A DNA stretch of 64,000 nt. Origin: Syntrophomonadaceae bacterium. Lineage in GTDB: Bacteria > Bacillota > Dethiobacteria > DTU022. The stretch covers positions 2,894-66,893 of the forward strand of contig PWGX01000003.1 of the NCBI GenBank assembly GCA_003554615.1, written 5' to 3'. Positions 3,705-39,457 of this stretch are shown here, piece after piece (positions within the stretch are counted from its first letter, which is position 1; the number at the start of each line of letters is the position of its first letter). Made by a program: the position numbers and the translations under genes. Below the pieces are notes generated by a model, which was not told where the DNA came from, ran no database searches, and saw only the letters and a list, made by a program, of their open reading frames with translations.

Positions 3705-3771
3705 AAAAAATATTGATAAACCATTACCTCCCCCAGGGGCGGGTAATACCTGTTATTTCATTAATAATCTT

Positions 3772-4125
3772 TTATCCAGCCTCAACCAGGCCGCTGTATT
3801 CCTCCGGATTGAAACCGGCAACTAACTTTTTATCATCGGTTAAAAGGGGCCTGCGCATGATCTTGGGATTATTTTTGATCAGTTCGGCCGCCTCTTGATC
3901 GGTTATGCTGTCCAGGTCCAGCTTCAATTCTTTAAACCCCTTACTGCCCGGATTGAGCAGGCCCTTTATGCTAGTTCCGCCCCTGGAGGCCAACAGGCTT
4001 AATTCTTCTTTCTCCAGGGGCTGTTTAAGTATATCACGGTACTCGAATTCAACATTATTTTCGGAAAGCCACGCCTTCGCTTTACGGCAGGTAGTTCAGG
4101 TTGGAAAGCAGTAGAATTTTAACAT
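3772..4125 (-). CDS. ArsC/Spx-family (glutaredoxin-fold) protein with in-frame UGA = putative selenocysteine
   Basis: From the ATG at 4125 the reading is MLKFYCFPT-TGA-TTCRKAKAWLSENNVEFEYRDILKQPLEKEELSLLASRGG. This is in frame with the listed ORF 3772..3993. The UGA (4096-4098) sits where the family has the first Cys of the CxxC(R/K)KA motif. Confidence 0.75.
4065..4098 (-). promoter_or_regulatory. UGA recoding site plus candidate SECIS hairpin (ArsC-like gene)
   Basis: UGA is at 4096-4098. A hairpin AAAGC[GAAGGCGUG]GCUUU lies at 4083..4065, starting 13 nt after the UGA. The stem is short, so support is only moderate. Confidence 0.4.
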
Positions 4126-4145
4126 ACCCAATGCCTCCTCTGTAT

Positions 4146-4742
4146 TTAATCACCGATCTTCCAGGTTTCCCAAACCTTGCCCACCAGTTCCGGGCCCGGC
4201 TTGAGGGTTTTTTTGCCCGGCTGCCATCCAGCCGGAGTCGGCTCTCCGGTCTCTCGGACATGCTGGAAAGCCTGGACCTGGCGGACCAGTTCTGAAAAGT
4301 TCCGCCCCACCGGGGGAGTGAGCACTTCCATGGCCTGGATCTTGCCGTCGGGATCGATTAAAAAGCGGCCTCTAACATTAACCCCGCCTTCTTCATCGTA
4401 AACTCCATATAAACTGCCTATCTTTCCCCCGGTATCAGAAAGCATCGGGAACGGGATGCCACCTTCAACCATTTTTGACAGTTCCACTTCCTGCCAGATC
4501 TTGTGGGTAAATTTGCTGTCCACGCTGCATGACAGGACTTCCACACCGAGATCCTGCAGTTCCTTATACCTGGCGGCAACTGACGCCAATTCGGTCGGTC
4601 AGACGAAGGTGAAATCTCCGGGATAGAAGCAGAGCACCACCCATTGATCCTTGTAATCTGAAAGCTTGATATCCTTGAAACCGCCGCCTACAAAAGCACT
4701 GGCTTCAAAGTCGGGGGCCACCTGGCCAACTCTTACACTCAT
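4146..4742 (-). CDS. 2-Cys peroxiredoxin (AhpC/Prx family) with selenocysteine at the peroxidatic position
   Basis: From the ATG at 4742 (GGAGG 8 nt upstream) the reading is [64 protein letters not shown]. This is in frame with the listed ORF 4146..4589. The UGA (4599-4601) replaces the Cys of the universal FTFVCPTE motif. Confidence 0.85.
4570..4601 (-). promoter_or_regulatory. UGA recoding site plus candidate SECIS hairpin (peroxiredoxin)
   Basis: UGA is at 4599-4601. A hairpin UUGGCG[UCAGUUGC]CGCCAG lies at 4589..4570, starting about 10 nt after the UGA. Confidence 0.45.
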
Positions 4743-4849
4743 GTTTATACCTCCCATTTATTATTAGTGTTATTATATTCTATTTATTAATAATGACTCC
4801 TGCTTTTATTAAGAATATTTATCTATAATTTTTAGGGTGGCCAGACAGG

Positions 4850-5306
4850 TTAATTGACCAAAAAGTTCGGCTCCCGGGTTAGAGTCCCGGAAGCCGATTG
4901 TATTGATGGGAGGGGGAAGGTTGATTTTCTTATATTATAACCTGCCAATAATTTGATCCTGCTTGCTGGAGGGATCCTGGCTTCCATTATGGAGCGGGTG
5001 ATTATGGTTTCATCCTTAAAAACGGCATCGACTAATGCATCAATTTCGTCCCCTTCATCTCCCGGTTCTTCGGGAGTTCCTTCGAAGCCGGTTTCTTTCA
5101 CTACCCGTATAATAGTCCCGGGAAACAACCTCAGGATTATAATCCACGTAAGCCTTAACGGAGGCAAAATTTACCGAGGCCTTTTCCACACCATGTTTGT
5201 CCTGCAGGGCCTTTTCCAGGCTCCGTGAACAACTTGCACAGCTCATACCGTCAATCAAAAGGGTTAGTTTTTCATTAACGCATTCCCCGCCTCCTAAAAA
5301 AGGCAA
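4850..5306 (-). pseudogene. heavy-metal-associated (HMA, CopZ-like) domain gene with an apparent 1-nt frameshift
   Basis: Frame A (5055..5306) gives KLTLLIDGMSCASCSRSLEKALQDKHGVEKASVNFASVKAYVDYNPEVV, then nonsense. The expected end of the domain, PGTIIRVVKETGFEG, continues in the other frame (ORF 4850..5167). The switch lies near 5117-5130 (GTTGTTTCCCGGG on the coding strand). Confidence 0.6.
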
Positions 5307-5312
5307 ATTTTT

Positions 5313-5756
5313 TTATTCCCCTGCTTCATCTTCTTTAGATTGATAAATCAGGTTCTGCTTCTCTGCCAGTTCAGCCAGCGTGATACTGCTCAGCTCATTG
5401 TAAATGGCATCTTTTAAGCCCACCCATACACTTCGGGTAACACATAGATTAATCCTTTCGCAGACATCGGGATCGTCCACACAGTCGACCGGGGAAAGTG
5501 AACCTTCAACTGTTTGAATAACCTCATACATGTTGATCGCTTCCGGCGGTTTAGCCAGGACATACCCACCCTGGCTGCCTTTGTGGGTTTTTACATACCC
5601 ACTGATGCGCAGGGGGAACATAACCTGTTCCAGGTACTTCAAAGAAATATCCTGCCTGGAGGCAATATCTTTTAATTTAACCGGTTCCTGGCCGTATTTT
5701 AAGGCCAGTTCAACCAGTGCTCGGGCAGCATAGCGGGCTTTTGTTGAAAGCTGCAT
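5313..5756 (-). CDS. Rrf2-family transcriptional regulator (IscR/CymR-like, three Cys)
   Basis: MQLSTKARYAARALVELA...DISLKYLEQVMFPLRISGYV is the Rrf2 wHTH. A C-x6-C-x5-C cluster follows (CVDDPDVCERINLC). The ATG at 5756 has GGAGG 9 nt upstream. The ORF-track start at 5789 is probably too long. Confidence 0.8.
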   Translation of the reverse strand: MQLSTKARYAARALVELALKYGQEPVKLKDIASRQDISLKYLEQVMFPLRISGYVKTHKGSQGGYVLAKPPEAINMYEVIQTVEGSLSPVDCVDDPDVCERINLCVTRSVWVGLKDAIYNELSSITLAELAEKQNLIYQSKEDEAGE

Positions 5757-5827
5757 CTTATTAATCCTCCTTTTGGACGCCCTGTCCAAAAAATAGAAAC
5801 GGCCCCGGTTTCGACTGCTCAGCCACC

Positions 5828-6763
5828 TTACTCATTAAAAAGAACCGTTGACATGTACCGCTCGGCAAGATCGGGCAGGACAGTCAAAACCAGTTTGCCC
5901 TTATTTTCAGGACGCCCGGCTACCTCCAGGGCTGCGGCGCAGGCTGCTCCTGATGAGATCCCGACAAAAAGCCCTTCTTCCTGGAGCAGCCGCCTGGCCG
6001 TTTCCAGGGCCTGCTGGTCAGAAACCTTGATCACTTCATCCAACAAATCCAGGCGTAAAACCTCCGGGACAAACCCGGCCCCAATACCCTGGATTTTATG
6101 AGGAGCCGGTTCTCCCCCGGAAAGAACGGGAGAGTTTTCCGGTTCGACCGCGATTGCTTTCAAAGAGGGGTTTCTTTCTTTCAACACTTCTGCAACCCCG
6201 GTAATGGTCCCCCCGGTTCCAACTCCAAAAACCAGGATATCAACCTTTCCCTCAGTATCGGACCATATCTCTTCAGCGGTAGTCCGGCGGTGCACTTCCG
6301 GGTTGGCTTCATTTGTAAACTGCTGAGGGATGAAATAATGGCTGTTTTCTTGTGCCAGTTCTTCCGCCTTACTTACCGCGCCATTCATTCCTTTCTCTCC
6401 GGGGGTGAGGATCAGTTCCGCCCCCAGCCCTTTTAACAGGTTTCTTCTTTCTATGCTCATCGTATCAGGCATGGTCAGGGTGCACCTGTAACCTTTAGCG
6501 GCACAGACTATAGCCAGCCCGATGCCTGTATTACCGCTTGTCGGCTCCAGGATAATCGTATCCGGTCCAATCAGGCCCTCTTTCTCAGCTGCTTCAATCA
6601 TACTCAGGGCAATCCTGTCCTTAACGCTCCCCCCGGGATTGTAGGATTCGAGTTTGGCCACAACATCAGCCTGGCAACCTTCGGCAACCCTGTTCAAATA
6701 AACTAACGGGGTATTGCCAATCAGCTCTGTTACATTTTTGGCAATTTTCAAGTTCGCCACCAT
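5828..6763 (-). CDS. cysK: cysteine synthase A (O-acetylserine sulfhydrylase)
   Basis: 311 aa. It is typical of the PLP fold-II CysK family (IGNTPLV...[14 protein letters not shown]...[10 protein letters not shown]...GTGGTITG). Confidence 0.9.
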
Positions 6764-6807
6764 GCCTTTCCCTAAATTTCTACTATTTATATAGATTATC
6801 TTTTAAT

Positions 6808-6836
6808 AGTCTATGCAATTTTACCTCAAATGTCAA
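6808..6836 (-). promoter_or_regulatory. sigma-A type promoter for cysK
   Basis: The minus strand reads TTGACA-N17-TAGACT (-35 at 6836..6831, -10 at 6813..6808), about 45 nt upstream of the cysK ATG. Confidence 0.5.
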
Positions 6837-7044
6837 CATCCGGGGGCTGTTTTGTTCAAATAATCCCGTTTTTAACTGGACAAAGCAGGTAAATGTAAAA
6901 AAACCGGCCCAGACATGGCTGATTAGGCATGAAAACCCCCTTCTTAAAGTGATAATATAAATAGTTTTGGTTTAGAGATACAGAGGGGTATAATGAAGTT
7001 AAAAACCGGCAAATACTTTCGACTTTTAGAGAAAAAACTGCCGC

Positions 7045-7783
7045 TTATTTTTCTACTTCAGGAGCTTTTTCTTCATCGGCACCGTACCAGAGCACCCGCT
7101 GCGGGAAGGGGATCTGAATGCCGGCCGCTTCAATGGCGGTCTTTATTATCCACAGCAGCTCCCGTTTAACAGTGTACCATTCCGAAGTCGGGTTCCAGAC
7201 CCGGGCTACGATATCAACACTGTTGTCTCCAAGCTCATCTACAAAAACATGTGCCTCAGGACTAACCAGGGTCAGGGGATGTTCATCGATTATTGCCCGG
7301 ATTATTCGAACCGCTTTATCGGCGTCGTCCGAATAACGAATCCCGATCACAAAATCCACCCTCCGGACCTGGTTGCTGGAATAGTTGATGATACTGGAAG
7401 TGAAAACAGTTTCGCTCGGAATCCTGACATAAAGCCCGTCGAGGGTTCTGATCGAGGTGGAAATAATATGAATATCTTCGACAAAGCCCCGGTGGTCGGC
7501 TATCTCAATCTGATCCCCAATCTTTACCGGCCGTTCTCCCATCAAGAAAAGCCCGGAAATCAAGTTGCCTATAATGCTCTGGCTGGCAAAACCAACGGCC
7601 AGGGCAACAATCCCCCCCGGCCACCATTAGGCCGGAAGGTTCAAGTCCCACAGTGGGCATAAACCAGAGCGCAGCAATGACTATAATCCCATAAGAAGCC
7701 AGTTTGGCTATGATTTCCAAATGTTCCTTGCTCATTTTTTCTTTAAGTGACCTTCTCAGCAAGGACCATTTTCTCAAAGCCAT
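7045..7783 (-). pseudogene. MscS-family mechanosensitive channel, frameshifted in a homopolymer and apparently N-terminally truncated
   Basis: The C-terminal ORF 7045..7563 is a typical MscS beta-domain (GERPVKIGDQIEI...G.VEDI...T.IRT.DG). The pore helix (LMVAGG|IVALAVGFASQSIIGNLISGLFLM) is recovered only if one G is removed from the 7-G run (plus-strand C7 at 7612-7618). TM1 and TM2 are not found upstream. Confidence 0.65.
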
Positions 7784-7973
7784 CACTGCCGTTTTCCCTC
7801 CGGTAGCACATTCCCCCCTCACACTTTTCCATAGCCAGGGAGATACCTTCAAAATGCAAACTGACAGGTATTTTATGAGGGGCCCAGGGAAACCCACTTC
7901 CGTTCAGGCCAGGCTGATAAGACCAGGAAATCGGGGTAGCTGTTTCCGTAGTTGTACTTTGTTTTTTATCCAT
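7743..7973 (-). CDS. hypothetical small Cys-containing protein (about 76 aa)
   Basis: The ORF has AAGGAAG 6 nt upstream of the second ATG. I recognise no family. It overlaps the degraded 5' end of the MscS remnant, so it could be spurious. Confidence 0.25.
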   Translation of the reverse strand: MDKKQSTTTETATPISWSYQPGLNGSGFPWAPHKIPVSLHFEGISLAMEKCEGGMCYRRENGSDGFEKMVLAEKVT

Positions 7974-8023
7974 AACCATCTTCCTTTGTCAGTCCTGCCA
8001 GGATGTTTATAACAGGCCCCTTA

Positions 8024-12051: not shown

Positions 12052-12083
12052 GGGCTGCCTCATCGCCACCTTTGGGGCAGCCC
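12052..12083 (+). terminator. possible terminator hairpin
   Basis: Stem GGGCTGCC / GGCAGCCC with a 16-nt loop, followed by CGTTTCTTTC. The T-tract is weak. Confidence 0.35.
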
Positions 12084-12105
12084 CGTTTCTTTCATAAGTG
12101 AGGCT

Positions 12106-12190
12106 CCGGGTTGTCATTCTAAAGGGTTAATCCTTATTTTACTCTTTTTTCACCTTGCTTCCATGCTTATTAGCGATTTCAATTTAAAAA
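12106..12190 (+). repeat. conserved intergenic element, copy upstream of bamB
   Basis: It shares GTTA(A/G)(T/C)CC..ATTT(T/C)A..TTTT(C/A)ACCTTG-N-TTCCATGCTT...AG(C/G)GATTT with 35201-35290 and 49172-49250, all in the same orientation. Confidence 0.7.
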
Positions 12191-12472
12191 CTGTTCTTGT
12201 AAAGTAAGGTTAAATAGAGAAAATAAGGGGTTATATTATACAATCACCAATATTGACCGCATTTCGCAATTCGTCCGGCCACAGCATTTTTTGTTGCATA
12301 ATTGATTGTTTCAGTGTTCACGGCAAATAAAACAGGCCGGGCAAAACCTTTTATAACCGGGCCAGGCAAAATAACCCGGAAGAACAGTATTTTGACAGCG
12401 CCCGGGCATTAATGCATTGCTCTGTTTTCAAAAAGCACGTTTAGAGCAAAAAATAGCTAAGAGGTGTAAAAA

Positions 12473-14464
12473 ATGAGATATGCTGAAACAGGGTACAACC
12501 TGGAAATTGACCTCTCCAGCGGAAACATTGAAAAAGTGCAAACCGATCCGGCCCTGACAGAACTGCACCTGGGCGGGCTGGGAACCAACGCCAGAATTTT
12601 GTGGGACAGGGTCCCTCCTGAAACAGATCCCCTTGCCCCGGAAAATCTGCTTATCTTTGGCACCGGCCTGCTGGCCGGCACGCCCGCTCCCGGCGCCAAC
12701 CGGACTATTGTCACCACATACTCACCTCAAACCCTGTTAATGGCCTATTCCATGATGGGAGGTTTTTTTGCTCCCGAGCTTAAATACGCCGGTTACGATA
12801 AGGTTATTTTCAGCGGCCGCTCGCCGGAGCTTGTTTATATCTGGATCAATAACGACAAGGTGGAAATAAAAGATGCTTCCCACCTGCAGGGTAAAGGTGT
12901 CGTTGAAACCGAAGAACTGATCAAGCAGGAACTGGAGGACCAGGATGCCCAGGTGGCTTCTATAGGCCTGGCCGGAGAAAACAATGTCTATTATGCTTCC
13001 GTAGAGCATGCCCGCTCCAGCGCCAGCCGGGCGGGAATCGGGGCTGTTATGGGCTCTAAAAACCTAAAAGCGGTGGCCGTTCGCGGCACGAAAGATCTTA
13101 ACATCGCCCGGCCGGAGAAATTTATCGAACTTTGCAATGAGGTCCTGGACTACATCCAGTGGCGGGCTGACAACCCGGTTCAACATGTCCCCCCCATCCT
13201 GGCCGGACTGGGGTCGCCACAGGAAATGGCCATTCACGACGAAGCATGGCACACCACCGCTTTCTCGTGGGGGAATGCCCGCTACCGGAGAAAAGAATTC
13301 TGGACCGAAGAAGTGGAAGATGAATGGTTCAGGGTCCAGGACGGCGCCGTGCAGAGGTTGATCAGCTGTTACAACTGCCCCATGAAGTGTGGGGCCATTA
13401 TTGCCTATCCCACCCTGGAACTTTCAAAGTATATGATGAAGTGTTATTCGAAGCTTACCTACGTGATGGGCGCCATGGCTGATAACCTTGAGTTTGGCTT
13501 CAGGATTGCCGGGCTGGCCCAGGGCTACGGGGTAGACTCCTACACCGCACCGCAGGTAATGGCCTTTGCCATTGAACTATATGAAAACGGCATTTTAACC
13601 GACGAAGACTTACCGGATTTCCCCGCTGATAACGAAGGCCGGTTTTTCTACCTCCTGGAAAAAATTGTCCGAAGGGAAGGAATCGGCGATGTTTTAGCCA
13701 ACGGTGTTTACTGGGCCGCCCGCCAGATCGGCGGAGGAGCGGAAGCTTATGACAGCAATACCATTAAAAAACATGAACAGATCCCTATTAAATTGGGTAT
13801 GCTAAACCCGGTTTTCTTCTTGATGCATTCCACGGGAGAAAAAATCAACATTACCCAGATCGAAGGACAGCTTCCCCAGGCTCCTTTCCCCGAAAAGGAA
13901 GACAGGGAAGAATTTGTCAAAGACTGGTTCCAGGCCCCCAGCGAAAACATCAAGGACTTTTTTGTCAAGTGGGAACCGCGGGGAGAGTACGCTTTCCCTT
14001 ATTTCCCCGACTTCCAAACCGCCTGCGAACTGGTGGAATGGCAGGAAACGATGCACTACATTGACGACACTACCGGTATATGTGCGGGCCTGTCATCTTT
14101 TCCGATCAAACCTCCTTACCACATCCATAACTTGCCCACCCTGATCTCTGCCGGGACCGGGCTGGATATCGACAAAGACGAACTGTGGAATAAAATCATT
14201 AAAAGAAACCGGTGCCTGCTCAGGGCCATTAACACCAGGAGGGGCCTGAGACGAAAAGATGACAGGCCGCCGGAAGACCACTGGAAGAAACGGTTCCCCG
14301 AACATGAAGCCAAACTGCTCGATGAATACTACAAATTTAAAGGCTGGAACAGTGAAGGGATCCCGACCAGGGAAACCTTGAGATCCCTGGATCTCGACCA
14401 TGTCGGGGAAGATTTAGAAAAGCGAGGGATATATGATGATGGGCAAAAAGACGAAGACAGTTAA
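12473..14464 (+). CDS. bamB: class II benzoyl-CoA reductase, tungsten/AOR-family catalytic subunit
   Basis: 663-aa AOR-family protein (N-terminal LGGLGTNARILWD...PENLLIFGTGLLAGT, GSKNLKAVAVRG). It is the first gene of a bamBCDEFGHI-ordered cluster. Confidence 0.85.
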   Translation: MRYAETGYNLEIDLSSGNIEKVQTDPALTELHLGGLGTNARILWDRVPPETDPLAPENLLIFGTGLLAGTPAPGANRTIVTTYSPQTLLMAYSMMGGFFAPELKYAGYDKVIFSGRSPELVYIWINNDKVEIKDASHLQGKGVVETEELIKQELEDQDAQVASIGLAGENNVYYASVEHARSSASRAGIGAVMGSKNLKAVAVRGTKDLNIARPEKFIELCNEVLDYIQWRADNPVQHVPPILAGLGSPQEMAIHDEAWHTTAFSWGNARYRRKEFWTEEVEDEWFRVQDGAVQRLISCYNCPMKCGAIIAYPTLELSKYMMKCYSKLTYVMGAMADNLEFGFRIAGLAQGYGVDSYTAPQVMAFAIELYENGILTDEDLPDFPADNEGRFFYLLEKIVRREGIGDVLANGVYWAARQIGGGAEAYDSNTIKKHEQIPIKLGMLNPVFFLMHSTGEKINITQIEGQLPQAPFPEKEDREEFVKDWFQAPSENIKDFFVKWEPRGEYAFPYFPDFQTACELVEWQETMHYIDDTTGICAGLSSFPIKPPYHIHNLPTLISAGTGLDIDKDELWNKIIKRNRCLLRAINTRRGLRRKDDRPPEDHWKKRFPEHEAKLLDEYYKFKGWNSEGIPTRETLRSLDLDHVGEDLEKRGIYDDGQKDEDS

Positions 14465-14999
14465 AGTGATCAATATCGACCTTGAAAAATGCAACGGCTG
14501 CCGGGCCTGTGAGATGATCTGCTCCGCCTTTCATGCCTCTGAGAAATACAGCTCGAATAACCCGGCCAGGTCCCGGATCAGGATGATCCGCCGGCCGCTG
14601 GAAGATATTTACCTGCCGATATATGCAGGTGAATACACTGCAGCTGAATGCATGGGCAGGGACAAATATGTTATTGACGGCAAGGAATATGACGAGTGCG
14701 ACTTTTGCCGGGCCTCCTGTCCTTCAAGAGAGGCCTTCAAGGAGCCTGATTCCGGCCTGCCCTTGAAATGCGATATGTGTGAAGACGATCCGCCTCAGGA
14801 AGAACCCCTTTGCGTGAAATGGTGTCTTTCCGATGCCCTAACTTATGAAATAAGGGAAGAAGAAGTTGAAGATGAAGAGGAGGAAGAACAGAAAGACCTG
14901 ACCCAGAAAGAAATGGAGCGAAGCATAAAGGCTTTAGCCGATAGATACGGTTTGGACAAAGTGGCCAACAGCATGGCCCGACTGTTAAAGAAAGAGTAA
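14433..14999 (+). CDS. bamC: BamC, poly-[4Fe-4S] ferredoxin subunit
   Basis: 188 aa with CNGCRACEMIC and further Cys clusters. It overlaps the bamB 3' end by 32 nt. Confidence 0.8.
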   Translation: MMMGKKTKTVKVINIDLEKCNGCRACEMICSAFHASEKYSSNNPARSRIRMIRRPLEDIYLPIYAGEYTAAECMGRDKYVIDGKEYDECDFCRASCPSREAFKEPDSGLPLKCDMCEDDPPQEEPLCVKWCLSDALTYEIREEEVEDEEEEEQKDLTQKEMERSIKALADRYGLDKVANSMARLLKKE

Positions 15000-15032
15000 A
15001 GAAACCACGGCGAAAGAAGGGATCATTTTATC

Positions 15033-16184
15033 GTGGATACTGAAACCCCGATCAAGGAAGTTATTGAGGAAATAAGAGAATTTGGCGGTGAAGCCGTTAA
15101 ATATTGTTACCAGTGCGGCAAGTGCGATACTGTCTGCCCCTGGAACAAAGTTATAGATTTTAGCATCCGCAGGCTGATCAGGGAAGCGGCATTCGGAATC
15201 CCTGAAATTGAACTGGAAGAAGTCTGGCGCTGCACCACCTGCGGAAAGTGCCCCCAGGAATGCCCCAGGGATGTTAAGCAGATTGACGACGTTGTAGCCA
15301 TGCGCAGAATTGCCACCGAGTACGGCGTTTCTTCCACCCTTCTAAAACCGGTCCGGTCAGCCAGCGCCAGCCTAACCGCCGAAGGCAACCCTTTTGTCCA
15401 GGACCGCTCCAAACGGGCCGACTGGGCGGAAGGTTACAATGTCAAATCTTTTAACGAGGAAATGGAAATCCTTTACTTTCCCTGCTGCTATGTCAGCTAC
15501 GACCAGCGGCTGATGGAAATTGCCCGGGCTACTGCCGGGATCCTCAACAAGGCCGGGGTGGAATTTGGCATACTGGGCACTGAAGAAAACTGCTGCGGGG
15601 AAAGCATTCGTAAAACAGGCAATGAAGAGGTATTTAAAACCCTGGCCCGGGAAAACATCAAAACCTTTATCGATCACGGGGTAAAACGGATCCTGGTTTC
15701 TTCACCCCACTGCTACCATACTTTTAAAAATGAATACCCCGAGTTTAAAGCTAATTTCGATGTAATTCACATCTCGGAATATATAAACGAGCTTATTAAC
15801 GAAGGCCGCTTGAAAACCAACGGAGACTACTCTAAAAAAGTAGCCTACCACGACCCGTGTTACCTGGGACGGCACAATGGTATTTATGATCCTCCCCGGG
15901 ATATCCTTAAATCGATCCCCGGCCTGGAATTTCATGAACTCCCTGAGTCACATGAAAAGAGCCTTTGCTGCGGCATGGGCGGGGGCAGGATCTGGATTGA
16001 CACCAAGATGTCGGAACGCTTTTCCAACCTCAGGCTGGAGCAGGCGATCGAAACTGGAGCCGAGGTGCTGGCCACTTCCTGCCCTTACTGCGTTGATGCC
16101 CTGGAGGAAAGCAGGTCGGGCCTGAATTATGAAGAAACAATTTTGGTTAAAGATATTACGGAAATCCTGAACGAGTTAATTTGA
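15033..16184 (+). CDS. bamD: BamD, HdrD/GlpC-like Fe-S oxidoreductase with CCG domains
   Basis: 383 aa with 2x CxxCxxCxxxCP ([24 protein letters not shown]) and two CCG-type motifs ([14 protein letters not shown]). Confidence 0.8.
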
Positions 16185-19100
16185 AACCTGGCGAGGTGAA
16201 AAAATTGGATCATCCGACCGATCTAAACGGAGAACAGCTGATCAAAAATCTTGCCGGCGGTAATCTCGGAGATGTGATGGTAGTTGGCGGAGGTGTCAGC
16301 GGCATCCAGGCTTCCCTGGATCTGGCCGCCGTGGGCTTCAAGGTGTACCTGGTCGACAGGGCTCCCGCCATCGGGGGCCATATGGCCCAGCTGGACAAGA
16401 CCTTTCCGACCAATGACTGCTCGATGTGAATACTCTCACCGAAACTGGTCGAGGTCGACCGGCACACCAACATCAAAGTCATCCCCTATGCTGAAGTTGA
16501 CAGTGTGGAAGGCGAAACTGGCAATTTCAAGGTGAAACTGAGGAAAAAGCCCCGTTACGTCCGGGAAGACAAGTGCACGGGCTGCAATACATGCACGGAA
16601 TACTGCCCGGTCCAGTACCCTGATGAGTTCAACCAGGACATATCAAACAATAAAGCCATCCATATTTATTATTCACAGGCTATCCCGCTGATCACCTATA
16701 TTGACGAGAACTGCCTGTACTTAAAAGAAGAAAAATGCCGCATCTGCGAAGCGGTATGTCAAAATGAAGCCATAGACTTTAATCAAACCGAAGAAATAAT
16801 GGAAATTAGCGTCGGAGCGGTAATCTTAGCTCCCGGTTACGAGGAATTTGATCCTAAAATAAGAGCGGACTTCGGGGCCGGGAGATACGACAACGTGATC
16901 ACCAGCATGGATTACGAGCGCCTGACCGATTCCACCGGGCCTTACGAGGGACAGATCCTCCGCCCTTCCGATCTGAAGCCTCCCCAAAAGGTAGCCTGGA
17001 TCCAGTGCGTCGGTTCTAGACAGGTCAACCCCCCGGGAGCCAATAGCTACTGTTCCTCGGTATGCTGTACCTATACCCAAAAACAGGTTATTTTAACCAA
17101 GGAGCACGACCCGGAAACAGAATGCACCGTTTTCCACAACGATATCCGCTCCTTCGGCAAAGATTTCGAAAGGTTTTTCCAGAGGGCGGAAGAACTGCCC
17201 GATGTCAGGTTTATCCGCAGTTATGTCTCGGTAACGGGAAAAGACCCGGAAACCGAAAATGTGATTATCAAGTATACCAACCCCGAAGAAGGTGTTAAAG
17301 AAGAGGAGTTCGACCTGGTGATATTGTCCGTAGGCCTCAATCCGCCTCCGGATGTGGAAGGTCTGGCCAAAAAATTTGGGCTGGAATTGAACGATCATGG
17401 CTTCTGCAAAACCAACCCGGTCAACCCCATGGAAACATCACGCCCCGGGTTCTATGTCAGCGGCGCCTTCCAGGGCCCGCTCGAAATACCTGAAACAGTA
17501 GTTACTGCCAGCGGGGCCGGCTCCCAGTGCGGGGAACTGCTCAGTTACCGCAAGGGCGACCTGTCTGTGGAAAGGGTTTATCCGCCCGAAAAAGATGTTT
17601 CCCTGGAAGAACCGCGGATCGGGGTTTTTGTCTGCCACTGCGGGGCCAATATCGGCAGGGTGGTCAATGTGCCATCAACCGTTGATTACGCTTTAACCTT
17701 GCCCAACGTGGTTTATGCCCAGGAACAGCTTTTTTCCTGCGCCACTAATTCTGCCGAAGAAATTACAGAAATGATTAAGGAAAAAGACTTAAACCGGGTT
17801 ATAGTGGCCGCCTGTTCTCCGCGAACCCTGGAAATGCTCTTCCGGGACACCCTCAGGGAAGCGGGCCTGAACCAGTACTACTACGAAATGGCCAACATCC
17901 GGGAACACTGTTCCTGGGTCCACCCCAGGCAAAAAGATGAGGCCAATCAAAAAGCAAAAGATATAATCAGGATGGCTGTAGCAAGAACCCACCACCTGGA
18001 ACCGTTAATGGAAATCAAGCTGCCGGTCGATAAAAAAGCGCTGGTGGTAGGCGGCGGAGTTGCCGGAATGAGCTGTGCCCTTTCCATTGCCGAGCAAGGC
18101 CATCAAGTTTACCTGGTGGAAAGAGAAACTGAACTTGGTGGTACAGCCAGGCAAGTTTACGAAACCCTGGAAGGGCTAAATGTCCAGGCATTCCTAAGCG
18201 ATCTGATCAAAAAAGTTTACCGCCACCCCTTGATTCATGTTTACACCGGGGCCGAAATTACCGGGACTGCCGGTTATATCGGCAATTTTACGACCAAAAT
18301 CCAGTCTACCCGCGGAAACACCGAAGTTAAACACGGGGCCACAGTCATTGCCACGGGAGCCGATGTTTATACTCCCACCGAATACCTGTACGGCGAAGAC
18401 GACCGGGTCATGACCCACCTGGAACTGGAAGAAAAAATTGCTACTGAAGACGAAATGATTGCCGGTGCAGAAACCATAGTCATGATCCAGTGCGTGGGCT
18501 GCCGGAATGAAGATCGCAATTACTGCAGCCGGATCTGCTGTAACGAATCAGTTAAAAATGCCCTGCAATTAAAAGAAAAGAACCCCGAACGGGACGTCTA
18601 TATCCTTTTCAGGGATATGAGAACCTATGGTTACAACGAAGACTATTACCGGGAAGCCGCCGGCAAAGGGGTCGTGTTTATCCGCTATGAACCAGAACAG
18701 GAACCGCAGCTTGAACCAGCCGAAGAAGAGGGGCGGCCGGTTATAAAAGTAACCCTGCCCGATTACGTCCTGCAAAAAAACATCGAACTGGATGCAGACG
18801 TTATAGCCCTTGCCGCCGCAGTTATTCCTTCAGCCGGAACCAGGGAAGTGGAAAATTTATTCAAGGTCGGCCTTAACCCAGACGGCTTTTTTAAAGAAGC
18901 TCACGTCAAGTTGAGGCCGTTGGAATTCTCGGCTGAAGGGGTGTATTTATGCGGCATTGCCCACTATCCGAAAATGATTTCTGAAACCATCAGCCAGGCT
19001 TACGGAGCTGCAGGCCGGGTCCTGGCCCTGCTTTCCAACGATATTATTACCGCCTCCGGGGCCATCTGCGAAGTGGACAAAAACAAGTGCGTTACCTGCG

Positions 19101-19333
19101 GAGCCTGTATTGACGCCTGCGCCTACGGGGCCATTGAATTCGAGGAAACTGATGAAGCAGGCTTAAAGGCAGCCGTAAACCCGGTCCTGTGCAAGGGAGA
19201 CGGCCTATGCAACGCCGTATGCCCCACCGGGGCGATCCAGTTAAAACACTTTACCGACGAGGAACTGCTCAGTCAGATCGATGCAGTTGTCCCCGAGGAA
19301 GAGGTTGCAGAAACAAAAGAAACCGCGGTATAA
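16181..19333 (+). CDS. bamE: BamE, HdrA-like FAD/Fe-S subunit (fused, duplicated HdrA) with in-frame UGA = selenocysteine
   Basis: Listed ORFs 16181..16429 and 16505..19333 are in the same frame and are separated only by TGA 16427-16429. The reading is [26 protein letters not shown], and the HdrA consensus there is FPTxDCSMCIL. The TTG start overlaps the bamD stop (TTGA), so the exact start is uncertain. Confidence 0.85.
16427..16462 (+). promoter_or_regulatory. UGA recoding site plus SECIS-like hairpin in bamE
   Basis: A hairpin CUGGUCG[AGGU]CGACCGG lies at 16445-16462, 16 nt after the UGA. Its apical loop contains GGU, as in classical bacterial SECIS elements. Confidence 0.6.
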
Positions 19334-19388
19334 AGGACGTTAACAGGCCTGAATACGGGCAAAATACTGAACCGGGAGGTGACAGCGG

Positions 19389-20156
19389 ATGAGTGATAAA
19401 CATACATTCAAACCGAAAGTGGTCGGCTTCGTATGCCAGTGGTGAGGATATGGAGCTGCGGACTTGGCTGGAGTTTCCAGGCTACAATACACAACTGAAA
19501 TCAGGCTCATTCGGGTCATGTGCAGCGGACGGGTCGATCTGGCCCATCTGTTCAGAGCTTTTTCAAACGGAATGGACGGGGTTTTGATCGGCGGGTGCCG
19601 GCTGAAAGAATGCAACTACATTACCCACGGAAATTACCATGTCCTGAACCTGGTCCTTTTGAGCAGGAGAATTATGAAATACATCGGCCTGAACCCCGAC
19701 CGGTTAAGGATTGAGTTTATGTCATCAGGAGAGGGGAACCTTTTTGCAAAAGTTGTCGATGATTTTGTCGCCACGGTCAGGGAAGCGGGTCCGCTCGGCA
19801 TCAGCGAAGGACTTAACCCCGAAACCCTGCGCCTAAATTTAAAAGCTGTTTACAAGCTCATTCCTTATTTCAGGCTGGTGGAAAGCGAAAGGTTGAGGGG
19901 CCATTTTGAAACCCGGGAGCAGTTTGAAGCATTCTATGCCGGCGAAGAATTTGAACGGCTTTTTAAAGAGTTGATCGCCGACAAGTTGGCCATCAGCCAG
20001 ATCATAGCCTTGCTGCAGAAAAAACCGCTTTCGACCGGGGAAATATCGGAAGTGCTTGGTCTGTCGCCCTCCGACATATCCAAACACCTGAACAATTCCG
20101 CCAGGCAGGGGCTGGTCAGATATGAGGAAGAGGAAAAACGCTTTGCCCTGGCTTAA
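19389..20156 (+). CDS. bamF: BamF, MvhD-like subunit with in-frame UGA = selenocysteine and a C-terminal wHTH-like extension
   Basis: The ATG at 19389 has GGGAGGTG 7 nt upstream. The reading is MSDKHTFKPKVVGFVCQW-U-GYGAADLAGVSRLQY, in frame with listed ORF 19464..20156. MvhD-type proteins have C(N/Q)WC here. TGA is at 19443-19445. Confidence 0.85.
19443..19482 (+). promoter_or_regulatory. UGA recoding site plus candidate SECIS hairpin in bamF
   Basis: A hairpin CUGGA[GUU]UCCAG lies at 19468-19480, extendable with flanking G/C. It starts about 22 nt after the UGA. Confidence 0.45.
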
Positions 20157-20209
20157 AACAAAAAAGCAAAACCCTGCCCGGGATAAAGGAGGATACCGGT
20201 AAAACAGCC

Positions 20210-20662
20210 ATGGATATCGAAAAAGTTGATCAAATTATAGACAAACACAACAGTGAGGCCAGCTCGCTGATCCAGGTTCTGCTGGAAATCCAAAGCGAAA
20301 ACCGCTGGCTGCCCCGGCAGATCCTGGAAAGAATCAGCGAAAAACTGGAAGTGCCTTTGAGCCGAATCCAGCATATAGCCACATTTTACAAGGCTTTCAG
20401 CCTGATTCCCAAGGGGCGCCACGAAGTACACATCTGTATGGGCACCGCCTGCCATGTCCGGGGTGCGCAAAATGTCCTTACTGCGGTTGAAGACTACACC
20501 GGCATTAAGCCCGGCGAAACAGACCTTGATTTGAAATTTAGCCTGGAAACAGTAAACTGCCTCGGCTGCTGCGCTCTCGGACCGGTAATGGAAGTCGACG
20601 GGCAGATCCACGGTAAAATATCGCCGGCAGAAACTGCAGACGCCTTAAAAAAATATGAGTGA
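20210..20662 (+). CDS. bamG: BamG, NuoE-like [2Fe-2S] subunit
   Basis: 150 aa with a thioredoxin-like 2Fe-2S ferredoxin pattern (HICMGTACHVRG...CLGCCALGPV). Confidence 0.8.
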   Translation: MDIEKVDQIIDKHNSEASSLIQVLLEIQSENRWLPRQILERISEKLEVPLSRIQHIATFYKAFSLIPKGRHEVHICMGTACHVRGAQNVLTAVEDYTGIKPGETDLDLKFSLETVNCLGCCALGPVMEVDGQIHGKISPAETADALKKYE

Positions 20663-20671
20663 GGTAAGATT

Positions 20672-22600
20672 ATGCCAAAGCTGAATTCATCTGCCGAACT
20701 GGAAAAACTGAGAGATGAAATTTTATCAAACAGGGATTCCGACCAGCGGATCATAACCCTTTGTTCCGGCACAGCCTGCCATGCCACCGGCAGCCGGTCG
20801 GTTGCTGCAGCCATCGAGGAAGAGCTGGAAAAACAGGGCCTAAAAGATCAGGTCATAGTCCGCAAAACCGGCTGTCACGGTTTTTGTGAAAGGGGCCCGA
20901 TCATTGTCCTCTATCCCGAAGGCATCTGCTATCTCCAGATCGAGCCGGAGAACATCCCTGAAATAGTTTCTCAAACCATCAAGGAAAACAAGATCCTGGA
21001 ACACTTGCTTTATATTGATCCCTCCAGTGATGAAAAAATAACCAGGGAAGATGAGATCCCCTTTTATAAAAATCAGCAGAGGCTTTTATTCGGCGCCAAC
21101 CTCCAAATTGATCCCAAGAGTATCGAAGATTACCTGGCTTTAGGCGGTTATAAAGCCCTGGCCAGAGCCCTGCTGAAGATGGATCCCGGGCAGGCCCTGG
21201 AAGAAGTAAAAAAGGCCAACTTAAGGGGTCGGGGCGGAGGCGGCTTTCCGGCGGGCATTAAATGGGAAGGATCCCGCAGTGCGCCGGAGGATACAAAATA
21301 CGTCATTGTCAACGCCGATGAAGGCGACCCCGGAGCCTACATGGACCGAAGCCTGCTCGAAGGAAACCCCCACTCGGTCCTGGAAGGCCTTGCTATCGGG
21401 GCTTACACGATCGGGGCCAGGGAAGGGTTTATCTACGTCCGGCAGGAATACCCCCTGGCGGTGGACAATATCAATACGGCGATCAAGCAGGCAGAAGAAT
21501 ACGGTTTTCTCGGAGAAAACATCCTCGGCTCGGACTTTAGCTTTACGGTAAAAGTCCACCAGGGAGCGGGAGCTTTCGTCTGCGGTGAATCAACCGCTTT
21601 GATGACGGCACTTGAAGGAAGGGCCGGTGAACCGAGGCCCAAATACATCCGCTCCAATATCAAGGGCCTTTGGGATAAACCCACCGTCCTCAACAACGTC
21701 GAAACCTGGGCCAATGTCCCCCTGATAATCAACAACGGCGCCGAGTGGTTTGAAAAGTACGGGACTGAAACCAGCAAGGGAACCAAGATTTTCTCCCTGG
21801 TGGGCAAAATTAACAATACCGGGTTAGTGGAAGTCCCCATGGGCATGACTTTAAGGGACATCATCTTCAAGGTCGGCGGCGGGATCCGGGGCGGTAAAAA
21901 ATTCAAAGCAGTACAGACCGGCGGTCCTTCCGGGGGATGCCTGCCCGAACACCTGCTCGACCTGCAGGTTGGCTTTGACGAGTTAACAAAAGCCGGTTCG
22001 ATGATGGGCTCCGGCGGGATGATCGCCATGGATGAAGATACCTGCATGGTCGACGTGGCCAGGTACTTCCTTGATTTTTTAACCGATGAATCCTGTGGGA
22101 AATGCGTGCCCTGCCGGGAAGGGGTTAAACAAATGCTTAAAATCCTGACCAACATTACCGAAGGCCGGGGCCAGGAAGGCGACCTGGAACTGCTGGAAGA
22201 GCTGGGCCAGGTGGCCAAAGAAGTCTCACTTTGCGCCCTGGGGCAGACCGCACCCAACCCCTTCCTCAGCACTTTACAGTATTTCCGCGATGAATACGAA
22301 GCCCATATCAGCGGGAAAAGGTGCCCGGCCCTGTACTGCAAGGACCTGATCGCCTATTATATCGATCCGGAAGAATGCCAGGCCTGCCAGGCTTGCCTGA
22401 AAAAATGCCCCTCCGATGCCATCATCGGAGGCAAAAAAACCATTCACGTTATCGACCAGGGAAAATGCACCAAGTGCAACACCTGCTATGATGTCTGTCC
22501 TTCCCGTTTCAGCGCGGTGAAAAAGATTTCCGGGGAACCCGTTCCGCCAGCTATTCCCGAAGAAGAAAGAACCATTACCAGGGGGAGTAAAGAAAAATGA
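20672..22600 (+). CDS. bamH: BamH, NuoF-like FMN/NAD(P)-binding Fe-S subunit
   Basis: 642 aa. It carries GRGGGGFPAGIKW, the ESCGKCVPCREG N3-cluster motif, and C-terminal 2x[4Fe-4S] motifs. Confidence 0.85.
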   Translation: MPKLNSSAELEKLRDEILSNRDSDQRIITLCSGTACHATGSRSVAAAIEEELEKQGLKDQVIVRKTGCHGFCERGPIIVLYPEGICYLQIEPENIPEIVSQTIKENKILEHLLYIDPSSDEKITREDEIPFYKNQQRLLFGANLQIDPKSIEDYLALGGYKALARALLKMDPGQALEEVKKANLRGRGGGGFPAGIKWEGSRSAPEDTKYVIVNADEGDPGAYMDRSLLEGNPHSVLEGLAIGAYTIGAREGFIYVRQEYPLAVDNINTAIKQAEEYGFLGENILGSDFSFTVKVHQGAGAFVCGESTALMTALEGRAGEPRPKYIRSNIKGLWDKPTVLNNVETWANVPLIINNGAEWFEKYGTETSKGTKIFSLVGKINNTGLVEVPMGMTLRDIIFKVGGGIRGGKKFKAVQTGGPSGGCLPEHLLDLQVGFDELTKAGSMMGSGGMIAMDEDTCMVDVARYFLDFLTDESCGKCVPCREGVKQMLKILTNITEGRGQEGDLELLEELGQVAKEVSLCALGQTAPNPFLSTLQYFRDEYEAHISGKRCPALYCKDLIAYYIDPEECQACQACLKKCPSDAIIGGKKTIHVIDQGKCTKCNTCYDVCPSRFSAVKKISGEPVPPAIPEEERTITRGSKEK

Positions 22601-23208
22601 GCAAAGTCCTGTTGAAAATCGACGGCAAAGAAGTCGAAGCAGAAGAAGGAATGACTGTCCTGGAAACGGCGCAGGACGAGGGGATCGGGATCCCCACCCT
22701 GTGTCACCATAAAAAACTAGAGCCATATGGGGCATGCCGGATTTGCACGGTTGAAGCGGAAAAAAACGGCCGCTCGAAACTTGTCGTTTCCTGCGTCTAT
22801 CCTGTGGAGAAAGACCTGGAGGTAACTACCAGGTCGGAAAAGATTGACCGGGTCCGCAGGACGATCCTGGAACTGCTCCTGTCCCATGCCCCCGACTCCG
22901 ACCAGCTTCGAAAACTGGCCGAAGAATACGGGGCCAATAAAGACCGCTTCGAAAAAGAGCCTTCGTTCTGCATTCACTGCGGCCTGTGCGTGCGCTACTG
23001 CGCCGAAGTAAAGGGCAAGTTTGCAGTTGGTTTTATCAACAGGGGATCAAGGCGGGAAATAAATTTTATCCCGGAGCTGGCCGCAACCGAATGCTGGAAC
23101 TGCAAAGAATGTTTCCCGCTTTGTCCGACTTCAGCCCTCCAGGCCGCCTATATGTTCACTGAAGCCCAGATTTCTGAAACTCCTGTTTTTGAAGCCGATT
23201 CGAAGTAA
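22597..23208 (+). CDS. bamI: BamI, NuoG-N-terminal-like [2Fe-2S]/[4Fe-4S] subunit
   Basis: 203 aa. It has a 2Fe-2S ferredoxin fold (IPTLCHH...CRICTVE) followed by Cys clusters. Its start overlaps the bamH stop. Confidence 0.8.
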   Translation: MSKVLLKIDGKEVEAEEGMTVLETAQDEGIGIPTLCHHKKLEPYGACRICTVEAEKNGRSKLVVSCVYPVEKDLEVTTRSEKIDRVRRTILELLLSHAPDSDQLRKLAEEYGANKDRFEKEPSFCIHCGLCVRYCAEVKGKFAVGFINRGSRREINFIPELAATECWNCKECFPLCPTSALQAAYMFTEAQISETPVFEADSK

Positions 23209-29323: not shown

Positions 29324-30460
29324 ATGAAAACCAAGCTTTTTTTGCTCATGCTAATTTTAGCCCTGGTGCTAGTGCCCGTTCTAAGCGGTTGCGAACCAGA
29401 AGAAGTACCGGTTGATGAACCTGAAGAACCGGTCGATGAACCTGAAGAACCGGTCGACGAACCTGAAGAAGAAGGTCAGAGTTTTACTCTTGAATTCGCC
29501 ACTTTCTGGCCCGAAGGCGATTTCCAGGTAGCAGATGGCCATAAAAGCTGGGCCCAGGAAATCAAAGATCAGGTAGAAGCGGAAACTCCTCACACGATCG
29601 ATTTTAACTGGCATTACGCCCAGGCGCTTCTTGAAATGCCCGAGATTTACGGGGGGGTTGCCGACGGGGTTGCCGATATTGGAACAACCTGCCCCGCTTA
29701 TACACCAGGAGTCTTTCCCCTTACCGATGTTTTCGAACAACCCGGTTTTAATAACGATAACGCCCTGGTTGCTTCTGTGACCATGCACGAAGCCTGGAAG
29801 CAGTACGAACCGCTGCAGGAAGAGTACGCCGACGTCAAGATCATGCATTTCTGGGCCACCGGTCCCGGCGACTTTATGACCAACACCAGGGTCGAGACCA
29901 TGGAAGACCTGGACGGCCTGGATATCCGGGCCGTCGGAGGGACAATACCCTGGGTAAGGGCCCTGGGGGCAAACCCGGTCTCATTTGGCATGGGAGCATC
30001 ATATGAAAACATAGAGACCGGTGTTGTTGACGGGCTGCTGGCACCAACCGACACGCTCAAAGGCTTCCGCCTGGCAGAGGTAACAGAATATATTACCAAG
30101 AGTCCGCCAAGCTATAACATTATATTCATGAAAGTGATGAACTGGGATACCTGGGATGCATTACCCGAGTCAGTGCAGCATATTATTGATGAAGTCAACG
30201 AACAATATGTTTATGAATACGGTGAGCTGAGAACAGATCATACCGTTGAAGGCCAAAGGTTCGGTGTCGAAGAGCACGGCATGGAAGTAATCGAACTCGA
30301 TGAAGACGAATGGCAGCGCTGGGTGGATCTAATCGACCCGCTCATGGAAGAATGGGTTGAAGAAGCAGAAGCAGCCGGCCTGCCCGGTCAGGAAGTTATG
30401 GATCTTGCCCTCGAACTTGATGCCAGGCACTCAGAAGATTACGGCGACTACGGCAACTAA
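29324..30460 (+). CDS. TRAP transporter substrate-binding lipoprotein (DctP type)
   Basis: Lipobox VLSG-C, followed by an acidic repeat linker and then a DctP-like fold. It is followed by the dctQ- and dctM-type genes. Confidence 0.75.
   Translation: MKTKLFLLMLILALVLVPVLSGCEPEEVPVDEPEEPVDEPEEPVDEPEEEGQSFTLEFATFWPEGDFQVADGHKSWAQEIKDQVEAETPHTIDFNWHYAQALLEMPEIYGGVADGVADIGTTCPAYTPGVFPLTDVFEQPGFNNDNALVASVTMHEAWKQYEPLQEEYADVKIMHFWATGPGDFMTNTRVETMEDLDGLDIRAVGGTIPWVRALGANPVSFGMGASYENIETGVVDGLLAPTDTLKGFRLAEVTEYITKSPPSYNIIFMKVMNWDTWDALPESVQHIIDEVNEQYVYEYGELRTDHTVEGQRFGVEEHGMEVIELDEDEWQRWVDLIDPLMEEWVEEAEAAGLPGQEVMDLALELDARHSEDYGDYGN
29402..29464 (+). repeat. in-frame 21-nt tandem repeat x3, encoding (E/V)PVDEPE units
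   Basis: The units are GAAGTACCGGTTGATGAACCT, GAAGAACCGGTCGATGAACCT and GAAGAACCGGTCGACGAACCT. They lie directly after the lipobox Cys. Confidence 0.9.
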
Positions 30461-34985: not shown

Positions 34986-35200
34986 GTGTACACCGCCTTT
35001 AATAGGGACCGGTTGTATAAATAATAAAGTTCATACCATACATACATTCATTATATGCCAGTATAAAACCTGCCATTTCGCTCTAATCTTTAGAATTAAC
35101 CTGCTCCTTTCACTGCCTGCCGGAAATCTGCGAAGGAAACTTTAAAAATTTCATTAAACTGTTTTTTTAATTTTATCTTTTCCTTTTTATGCAGTCAACA

Positions 35201-35290
35201 CAGGGCTTCACTTAGGGGTTCATCCTTAGGGGTTAGCCCCGATTTCATACTTTTTAACCTTGTTTCCATGCTTTTTAGGGATTTTTTTAG
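35201..35290 (+). repeat. conserved intergenic element, copy upstream of the SDR-thiolase-dehydratase-ior operon
   Basis: It has the same core as 12106-12190 and 49172-49250. This copy carries an internal duplication of CTTAGGGGTT. Confidence 0.7.
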
Positions 35291-35428
35291 TACTTGTTTT
35301 TATTTAAACTTAAATAAAGTGCCAATAGTATAAACAAATTTACTGCAACCTTTTCATTCAGTGGCAAAGCAGGAATATTTTAAATCAAAAACTGTACAGC
35401 CGATTATCAGCAGGAGGTGTTTAATTAC

Positions 35429-36175: not shown

Positions 36176-36265
36176 CAGCCGGGATACATTATGAAATGAA
36201 GCGGCTGCTAAAGCTGTTGTGGTATTGTTTGATCGTGAGGAATGACTAGCCAAGGAGGAATACCC

Positions 36266-37420: not shown

Positions 37421-37440
37421 CTTGAAGGAGATATGTCCAG

Positions 37441-38301: not shown

Positions 38302-38393
38302 AATTAAATATAAGGAAAAGAAGGAAAAGAAGGAAAGTTTTTTTCTATGTTGAATCAAGAATATTGTAACTATATTGTGGAGGTGCCGTTAAA

Positions 38394-39416: not shown

Positions 39417-39457
39417 AACTTTACTGCTTCATCCTGCTATAAAGGAGAGATCCGTCA

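Follow-up and report, generated by a model that had tools for sequence, protein, structure and literature searches.

Several regulators of the benzoyl-CoA pathway are known, namely BamVW from Geobacter, which is a sigma-54-dependent two-component system, BzdR/PN from Azoarcus, and BadR, BadM and AadR from Rhodopseudomonas. The families represented are the sigma-54 EBP, BzdR/XRE-shikimate-kinase-like, MarR, Rrf2 and Fnr families. To our knowledge, the regulation of anaerobic aromatic-ring reduction is uncharacterised in Gram-positive strict anaerobes. The system proposed here would share with BamVW, BzdR and BadR/BadM/AadR the pathway-specific control of benzoyl-CoA reductase and ring-cleavage operons, and its regulator genes likewise lie beside the catabolic genes. 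It differs from them in protein family, operator sequence and promoter type (no sigma-54 motif is present here), and it is confined to Firmicutes-type anaerobes.

Among the closest described systems are those whose regulator has a GerE-type helix-turn-helix (HTH) domain. Dimers of such proteins (LuxR/TraR, DevR (DosR), NreC, RcsB, VraR/LiaR) bind dyads of 12-20 bp, many of which read GGG...CCC or AAG...CTT. With its centre at -42.5, the lux box takes the place of a -35 element, and the consensus heptamer of NarL is TACYYMT. In Escherichia coli, the sites from which NarL activates transcription are centred at -44.5 and -77.5 in ogt and at -43.5 in yeaR, and activation involves contact with the alpha-CTD of RNA polymerase, which at yeaR is placed on the opposite DNA face from NarL (PMC7419079; PMC10853779).

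The DNA described here is a stretch of 64 kb, called the window below, which contains three direct repeats of a conserved element, all on the plus strand (Table 1). Together, the features of these repeats suggest that each copy is an activator-dependent sigma-A promoter module, one per benzoyl-CoA operon, which is probably bound by the adjacent pair of a GAF-domain kinase and a NarL-type response regulator (RR). The conserved element proper comprises 75-100 nt, and the module includes in addition a -10 hexamer. An exact block, ACCTTGNTTCCATGCTT, is present in all three copies; a search for it with up to 3 mismatches gave 4 matches in the window against a shuffle mean of 0.71, a number that was reached in 0 of 100 shuffles. 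Identity among the three copies is about 65-75%. Copy 1 heads a class II benzoyl-CoA reductase cluster in which the gene for a BamB-like AFOR (12473-14464) comes first and is followed, up to about position 23208, by Fe-S, HdrD-like, HdrA-like, MvhD-like, NuoF-like and NuoG-like genes. The operon behind copy 2 encodes an SDR, a thiolase-like protein, an amidohydrolase, a 2-hydroxyacid dehydrogenase, two HGD-D subunits, IorAB and a CoA ligase, and is divergent from the genes for a sensor histidine kinase (HK) and the RR. Copy 3 begins 3 nt past the stop codon of a PaaK-like ligase gene. In the window the elements are located 100-320 nt 5' of the start codons. These results bear out what the preliminary description had claimed about the number of copies and about their placement, each in sense orientation on the coding strand 5' of an aromatic-catabolic operon. 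Its coordinates needed adjustment: the string it quoted for copy 1 starts at 12126 and not at 12133, and the end it gave was about 15 nt short, as the functional unit reaches the conserved TAnnnT hexamer.

Table 1. Features of the three modules and of the neighbouring regulator genes in the window. Numbers relative to transcription starts refer to predicted starts.
Feature	Position	Strand	Remarks
Terminator-like hairpin + T-run	12073-12095	+	Just 5' of copy 1; marks the end of the previous transcription unit
Copy 1, module	12105-12205	+	5' of bamBCDEF(G)HI (12473-23208); conserved element proper 12105-12179
Copy 1, box 1 GGGTTGTCA	12108-12116	+	
Copy 1, dyad AAGGGTTAATCCTT	12122-12135	+	Centre about -83.5
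Copy 1, TTTTACTC + T-run	12137-12150	+	
Copy 1, invariant core	12152-12168	+	-60 to -44
Copy 1, candidate 7-2-7 site CATGCTT-AT-TAGCGAT	12162-12177	+	Centre -42.5
Copy 1, ATTAGCGATTT	12169-12179	+	
Copy 1, -10 hexamer TAAAGT	12200-12205	+	Predicted start about 12212, from hexamer position
NarL/FixJ-type RR	32539-33273	-	Receiver and GerE HTH (Pfam); candidate activator
Soluble sensor HK	33270-34985	-	GAF - HisKA_3 - HATPase_c (Pfam); presumed partner of the RR
Near-consensus sigma-70-type promoter TTGACT-17-TAAAAT	35170-35198	-	Aimed at the HK/RR genes; abuts box 1 of copy 2
Copy 2, module	35210-35310	+	5' of SDR-thiolase-amidohydrolase-dehydrogenase-HGD-D-IorAB-ligase operon (35417-45886); conserved element proper 35210-35284
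Copy 2, box 1	35213-35223	+	
Copy 2, dyad GGGGTTAGCCCC	35229-35240	+	Centre about -82.5
Copy 2, core	35257-35273	+	
Copy 2, TTTAGGGATTT	35274-35284	+	
Copy 2, -10 hexamer TAAACT	35305-35310	+	Predicted start about 35317
Copy 3, module	49171-49271	+	5' of DUF35-oah-dch-had (49454-53171); conserved element proper 49171-49245
Copy 3, dyad AAGGTGTTAGCCCT	49187-49200	+	
Copy 3, core	49218-49234	+	
Copy 3, TTAAGGGATTT	49235-49245	+	
Copy 3, -10 hexamer TAAGCT	49266-49271	+	Predicted start about 49278

The 3' boundary of the module is set by a TAnnnT hexamer that occurs 30-31 nt 3' of the core in 39 of 39 distinct copies from the window and elsewhere, the distance of 30 nt being found in one sub-lineage. 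The T, A and T of this hexamer are invariant both in an alignment of 32 sequences and in all 39 distinct copies, and these positions were outside every search pattern used. The hexamers of the window are weak, with 3-4 of 6 matches to the -10 consensus, and those of distant Firmicutes are closer to it (5-6 of 6). Nine copies that were retrieved by way of their protein neighbours (see below) carry the hexamer exactly 31 nt after the core, as TATAAT (two copies), TATTAT, TATAGT (two copies), TACAAT, TAAAAT (two copies) and TAAATT. In Desulfoscipio gibsoniae (L150, CP003273 1992815-2013486, at about 9640 on the minus strand), TATTAT is found 31 nt after AACCTGGCTTTCATGCTT. No -35 hexamer accompanies TAnnnT: with spacers of 16-18 nt allowed, the closest approach to TTGACA is on average 2.6 of 6 in the 39 distinct copies. 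With numbering from a predicted start, placed 7 nt past the hexamer on the basis of its position, a conserved AAGCGAT occupies -41 to -35, and the spacer from -32 to -13 is unconserved. The presence of a -10 and the absence of a -35 is the signature of an activator-dependent sigma-A promoter, which we predict here from sequence. In three related loci (L095, L100, L137) the core lies only 127 nt 5' of the bamB start codon, so that there is room for this promoter and a short leader only. The promoter reading gains further support from the terminator-like hairpin that closes the previous transcription unit just 5' of copy 1. The HK/RR genes, in contrast, have a promoter with a -35. Inspection by eye shows comparable TTGACA-16/18-TA(T/A)AA(A/T) motifs at the same position in L150 and L154.

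Other promoter types and sites were considered for the element. A promoter scanner found no conserved canonical sigma-70 promoter inside it; the matches were TTGTCA-18-TATTTT, in copy 1 alone, and others which are unrelated and downstream. For the sigma-54 motif (TGGCAC-N5-TTGCW), 246 matches were counted when up to 3 mismatches were allowed, fewer than the 278 expected, and with up to 2 mismatches none lay in the three element regions; the core contains no GG. The preliminary description had recognised neither a sigma-54 nor a sigma-A promoter. The former judgement stands, whereas the latter gives way to what looks like a sigma-A promoter without a -35. Comparison by eye with consensus sequences revealed no fit to the promoters of sigma-B, -D, -E, -F, -G, -H or -K, nor to CcpA cre, Rex, Crp/Fnr or IHF sites. 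A leader peptide starting at the ATG of the core and short open reading frames on the reverse strand were rejected as well, since, as judged by eye, they have no Shine-Dalgarno sequence and differ from copy to copy in reading frame and stop position.

Upstream of the hexamer, several blocks are conserved. The invariant core (-60 to -44) is a non-palindromic sequence of 17 nt. Part of its invariance in the soda-lake clade stems from the search itself, for which the core served as query, and in distant lineages its 5' half varies (ACCTGG, ACCTCG, ACCTAG, ACCAAA, and a deletion of 1 nt). In the protein-retrieved set, which is free of this bias, the best-conserved stretch consists of the 3' half of the core and the next 9 nt, (C)CAT(G/C)CTT-T(T/C)-(A/T)AGCGAT. 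The form CATGCTT-TT-AAGCGAT can be read as two heptamers with a 2-bp gap, centred at -42.5 and with complementary arms GCTT/AAGC, the symmetry in strict 7-2-7 register being 4 of 7 only. Further upstream there are a TTCACyC block with a T-run at -73 to -61, a dyad AAGGGTT|AACCCTT near -83, in which 3-7 of 7 positions match and which is a perfect 14-mer in L123 and L134, and another AGGGGTT-like box near -100. The AGGGGTT-like boxes which had been reported 5' and 3' of the core are indeed present, and their mutual equivalence is a matter of resemblance only. The core is unlike any known NarL-family site, and neither AAGGGTT|AACCCTT nor CATGCTT-TT-AAGCGAT matches a published consensus known to us. 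Read by eye, AACCCTT / TCACCCT / AACCTTG / TTCCATG may form an array of half-sites with a period of about 11 bp, in copies that share ancestry.

Copies outside the window were found by two sequence searches. When one genome per species was scanned with the 17-mer, chance matches predominated to such an extent that the result cannot serve for counting copies per genome; among the matches listed, 111 of 120 loci were unrelated and 9 were true homologues, the latter in Bacillota MAGs and MAGs labelled Syntrophomonadaceae, most of which come from soda-lake sediments. A complete scan of a metagenome collection with a 23-base pattern gave 29 loci. The resulting 38 external copies (the 9 from the listed 17-mer matches plus 29) are from related soda-lake genomes and metagenomes of Syntrophomonadaceae type. 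Where the contig was long enough for the context to be judged, which excludes a few, they are located 5' of orthologues of bamB, of the SDR gene (with the kinase gene divergent) or of DUF35-oah, always in sense orientation, so that the expected confinement to regions upstream of aromatic operons was found as three orthologous contexts. The upstream neighbour is variable, bamB being preceded by a PEBP-family gene or by one for an enoyl-CoA hydratase, and DUF35 by differing ligase genes. Between orthologues the element is 85-87% identical, as compared to 39-53% for the non-coding flanks; about one fifth of the element positions are fixed by the search pattern, and without them identity is still about 83%. 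A hidden Markov model built from 32 distinct copies detected no extra copy in the window or in related loci. The number of elements tracks the number of operons: D. gibsoniae has one element, 5' of its single dch-had-oah locus, for one fused operon, L154 has two for two, and the window three for three.

The RR encoded beside copy 2 has VraR, NarL and DevR as its nearest solved structures. The HK has no transmembrane segment (hydropathy maximum 1.44) and contains a GAF domain, and therefore probably senses an intracellular signal. For a retrieval that does not depend on the motif, RR homologues with 55-70% identity were collected and their contigs fetched, which gave 10 loci. In 8 of these 10 a diverged element is present in the intergenic region adjoining the RR homologue (L150 of D. 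gibsoniae, L152, L154 with two copies, L156, L157, L159, L160 and L161). The operon beside the RR and the element consists of SDR-thiolase-oah-dch-had genes in L150, L154, L159 and L160, and encodes a class I benzoyl-CoA reductase in L156, L157 and L161. L152 has the RR, the HK and the element together without aromatic genes, with only a decayed methyltransferase gene in the place of the operon. The HK is kept beside the RR in L152, L154, L157 and L159-L161, and in the soda-lake clade the RR is found beside the element in every SDR-type locus. That the element travels with the regulator is the main argument that the RR reads it. The recognition helix is invariant across the 7 homologues compared, and changes in the helix are thus uninformative for linking the RR to its site. 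The interpretation in the preliminary description is supported in part. Of the two readings it offered, an array of operators with a promoter for a shared regulator such as the NarL-type RR is the one we favour, because of the fixed spacing of the -10-like hexamer, the absence of a -35, the occurrence of one element per operon and the adjacency of the RR in 8 of 10 loci.

The other of these readings was a leader or attenuator RNA, and a cis-acting leader, be it a riboswitch, an attenuator or a leader that binds protein, with its promoter still further 5', has to be weighed against a DNA element. Like riboswitch and T-box leaders, the element is strongly conserved in sequence and located in sense orientation, without exception, 5' of several related operons, its distance to the start codons in the window would allow long leaders, and a short inverted repeat has a T-rich tract on its 3' side. 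Unlike such leaders, it has no conserved secondary structure, covariation, expression platform or Rfam family. RNAalifold predicted 0 consensus base pairs for 32 distinct copies, and single-sequence folds of the three window copies on both strands gave z-scores of -0.74 to +0.95 relative to dinucleotide shuffles. The hairpin that had been described as covarying shows pairing in 75.6% of cells over 32 distinct copies against 75.0% in column shuffles, and its covariation score was equalled or passed by 81 of 500 shuffles; the inverted repeat is an imperfect DNA dyad which is kept as sequence and not a covarying stem. Rfam gave 0 matches at gathering score over the whole window, and those at E ≤ 1 were at chance level and outside the element. 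No terminator-like site was found within the element by the scan, nothing upstream of it is conserved that could serve as promoter, and the predicted transcription start is downstream. A leader RNA is thus a highly improbable explanation. A dispersed repeat of generic type, such as a REP, a MITE or some other mobile remnant, lying near these operons by chance would fit the finding of three copies with about 65-75% identity within 64 kb. The positions of the 38 external and 9 protein-retrieved copies speak against it, since these are, apart from a few on contigs too short to judge, orthologous sites 5' of the operon or beside the regulator, with a single orientation relative to the downstream genes throughout; the random orientation and context by which such a repeat was to be recognised are not seen among the 38 external copies. 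Repeat, alignment and HMM analyses, moreover, gave neither terminal inverted repeats nor additional copies. The recurrence at the same three orthologous positions excludes a REP or MITE for practical purposes, and we give this explanation next to no weight.

If the element is a promoter, it could also be of another type or be read by another protein. An alternative ECF-like sigma promoter would have (A/C)ACCTT as -35 and G(G/C)GATT, 16 nt downstream, as -10, with transcription starting about 25 nt upstream of TAnnnT; AACCTT-N16-GGGATT indeed has ECF-like spacing and an 'AAC' in its upstream element. Conservation, however, is highest in what would then be the spacer (TTCCATGCTT), and the sequence taken as -35 is variable among the distant copies (ACCAAA, ACCTAG, ACCTGG or a deletion of 1 nt) and has CAC instead of AAC in the bamB class. 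In addition, this reading offers no explanation for the invariant TAnnnT, whose consensus-like variants keep a constant distance of 31 nt. Sigma-factor architecture was detected in 0 of 40 window proteins scanned, and the protein-fetched loci are without an alternative sigma factor, the sole sigma-70-family gene being a full-length one of primary type beside a primase gene (L152/L153). We therefore consider an ECF-like promoter very unlikely. The same promoter module might instead be read by a regulator encoded elsewhere, by two proteins of which one binds the dyad and the other the core, or by a repressor or anti-activator. The core is asymmetric, unlike the known NarL-family dyads, and the BamF-like protein bears an extra winged-helix domain. 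Moreover, the RR of L158 has the identical recognition helix, yet the upstream half of the element survives there in remnants only and the core is missing, and L162 has an RR homologue of 57% identity in an unrelated context without an element; the latter is probably a paralogue. Against another reader stand the adjacency of the RR in 8 of 10 protein-retrieved lineages and throughout the SDR-type loci of the soda-lake clade, and the retention of RR, HK and element in L152, where aromatic genes are absent. As regards a repressor, conserved DNA 5' of a promoter without -35, together with the unconserved spacer between -32 and -13, is the geometry of activation and not of repression. On balance we regard a different reader as unlikely, though it deserves consideration.

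The preferred reading, activation by the RR, can be put as follows. The module would be a sigma-A-type promoter with TAnnnT as -10 and without a -35, in which about 95 bp of conserved upstream DNA serve as docking site for an activator, most likely the NarL/FixJ-type RR encoded beside copy 2. The soluble GAF-domain kinase would phosphorylate this RR on an intracellular signal of aromatic-acid catabolism, and dimers of the phosphorylated RR may then occupy sites at about -42.5 and about -83 and bring in RNA polymerase, by which the three operons of the window (four or more in relatives) would be induced together. A composite surface of regulator and alpha-CTD, as at yeaR, would explain such a long constrained stretch.

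A wider proposal, which is tentative and which we think more doubtful than probable, is that the module and the pair of soluble GAF kinase and NarL-type RR form an undescribed regulon that extends from Peptococcaceae to soda-lake Syntrophomonadaceae and Dethiobacteria and controls operons for both class II (Bam) and class I (Bcr/Bzd-type) reductases. The kinase might in that case sense an aromatic intermediate, for example benzoyl-CoA, via its GAF domain, and the core at -60 to -44 might be a non-standard composite site, either for regulator and alpha-CTD on opposite DNA faces or for a second factor. Literature searches found neither the motif nor a comparable regulon, and the D. gibsoniae genome paper does not mention the regulator. 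The element is of a conventional kind, and seems to be undescribed for these Gram-positive anaerobes. For the field of anaerobic aromatic degradation its relevance is moderate: the module offers a testable regulon marker, consisting of a DNA motif and a regulator pair, as well as a predicted promoter architecture, and with Desulfoscipio (Desulfotomaculum) gibsoniae there is a cultivable organism that carries the element. It could also help to annotate which clusters with bamB paralogues in MAGs belong to the benzoyl-CoA pathway proper.

Among the systems with GerE-type regulators, the AAGGGTT|AACCCTT dyad resembles the GerE-type dyads, with no exact match to the consensus of LuxR/TraR, DevR, NreC, RcsB or VraR/LiaR, and the likeness of the kinase to DosS/DosT, in the combination of GAF and HisKA_3, is at the domain level only. 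The differences from NarL concern the heptamers, since CATGCTT and ATCGCTT are unrelated to its consensus, the kinase, which is a soluble GAF protein and not the membrane nitrate sensor NarX, and the length of the conserved region, which at about 95 bp is far greater than in NarL promoters. The candidate regulon also differs, being one of aromatic catabolism in Gram-positive strict anaerobes. Similar to NarL promoters, on the other hand, the module has candidate sites at about -42.5 and -83, a -10 without a -35 and a putative pair of heptamers separated by 2 bp (7-2-7), and its candidate activator is a response regulator of the NarL/FixJ family.

The predicted leaders that separate the element, a predicted promoter/activator-site module, from the first genes of the window operons are long (about 100-260 nt) and weakly conserved, whereas bamB in three loci from related genomes or metagenomes (L095, L100 and L137) has a predicted leader of just 30-65 nt or so. 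Leader length therefore varies via insertion/deletion 3' of the promoter. In nine related loci, including Desulfoscipio gibsoniae (L150), a gene for a SAM-methyltransferase of about 240 amino acids comes first, before the SDR gene; it is split into two fragments in L152, and is absent from the window, L068 and L131.

Coordinates of the features discussed (L-handles, loci from related genomes or metagenomes)
Feature	Locus	Position	Strand	Remark
In-frame TGA	window	16427-16429	+	inside HdrA/BamE-like reading frame, about 16200-19333
BamF-like gene	window	19464-20156	+	MvhD/FlpD domain and C-terminal winged-helix DNA-binding domain
Three tandem 21-nt repeats (GAAGAACCGGTCGATGAACCT)	window	29402-29470	+	near 5' end of DctP-type TRAP solute-binding protein gene
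Predicted 5' leaders	window	12206-12472; 35311-35416; 49272-49475		
SAM-methyltransferase gene	L009, L124, L129, L136, L141, L144, L148			
SAM-methyltransferase gene	L150	8786-9535		
SAM-methyltransferase gene	L152	6625-7360		
RR/SDR intergenic locus	L158	9440-10010	minus	
Class I-type benzoyl-CoA reductase region	L156/L157	about 3750-8000		
Class I-type benzoyl-CoA reductase region	L161	1767-5992		

Within the bamB cluster, the open frame of the HdrA/BamE-like ORF (listed start 16505) extends upstream past an in-frame TGA. Because this TGA most likely encodes selenocysteine, the gene would be longer than the listed ORF; the counterpart in L154, a locus fetched via a regulator homologue, is divided likewise, with products of 74 and 896 amino acids. 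The winged-helix domain of the BamF-like protein is of the HTH_5/MarR_2 type (residues 179-224), and its fusion to MvhD/FlpD is unusual within a benzoyl-CoA reductase operon; the L154 counterpart carries Fe-S domains instead. The repeats in the TRAP gene code for an acidic Glu/Pro-rich repeat.

The response regulator homologue of L158 (63% identity, identical recognition helix) adjoins an SDR operon. The 17-nt core is absent from the intergenic region beside it, where the element is reduced to GTTTAATCC...TCACCC remnants and a different palindrome, TTGTTGTCAAATTGTTTTTTGACAACGG, is present. In three lineages (L156, L157 and L161) the operon beside a diverged element and the homologous kinase and regulator genes encodes a class I-type benzoyl-CoA reductase (ATP-dependent, BcrAD/HGD-D) in place of the Bam genes.
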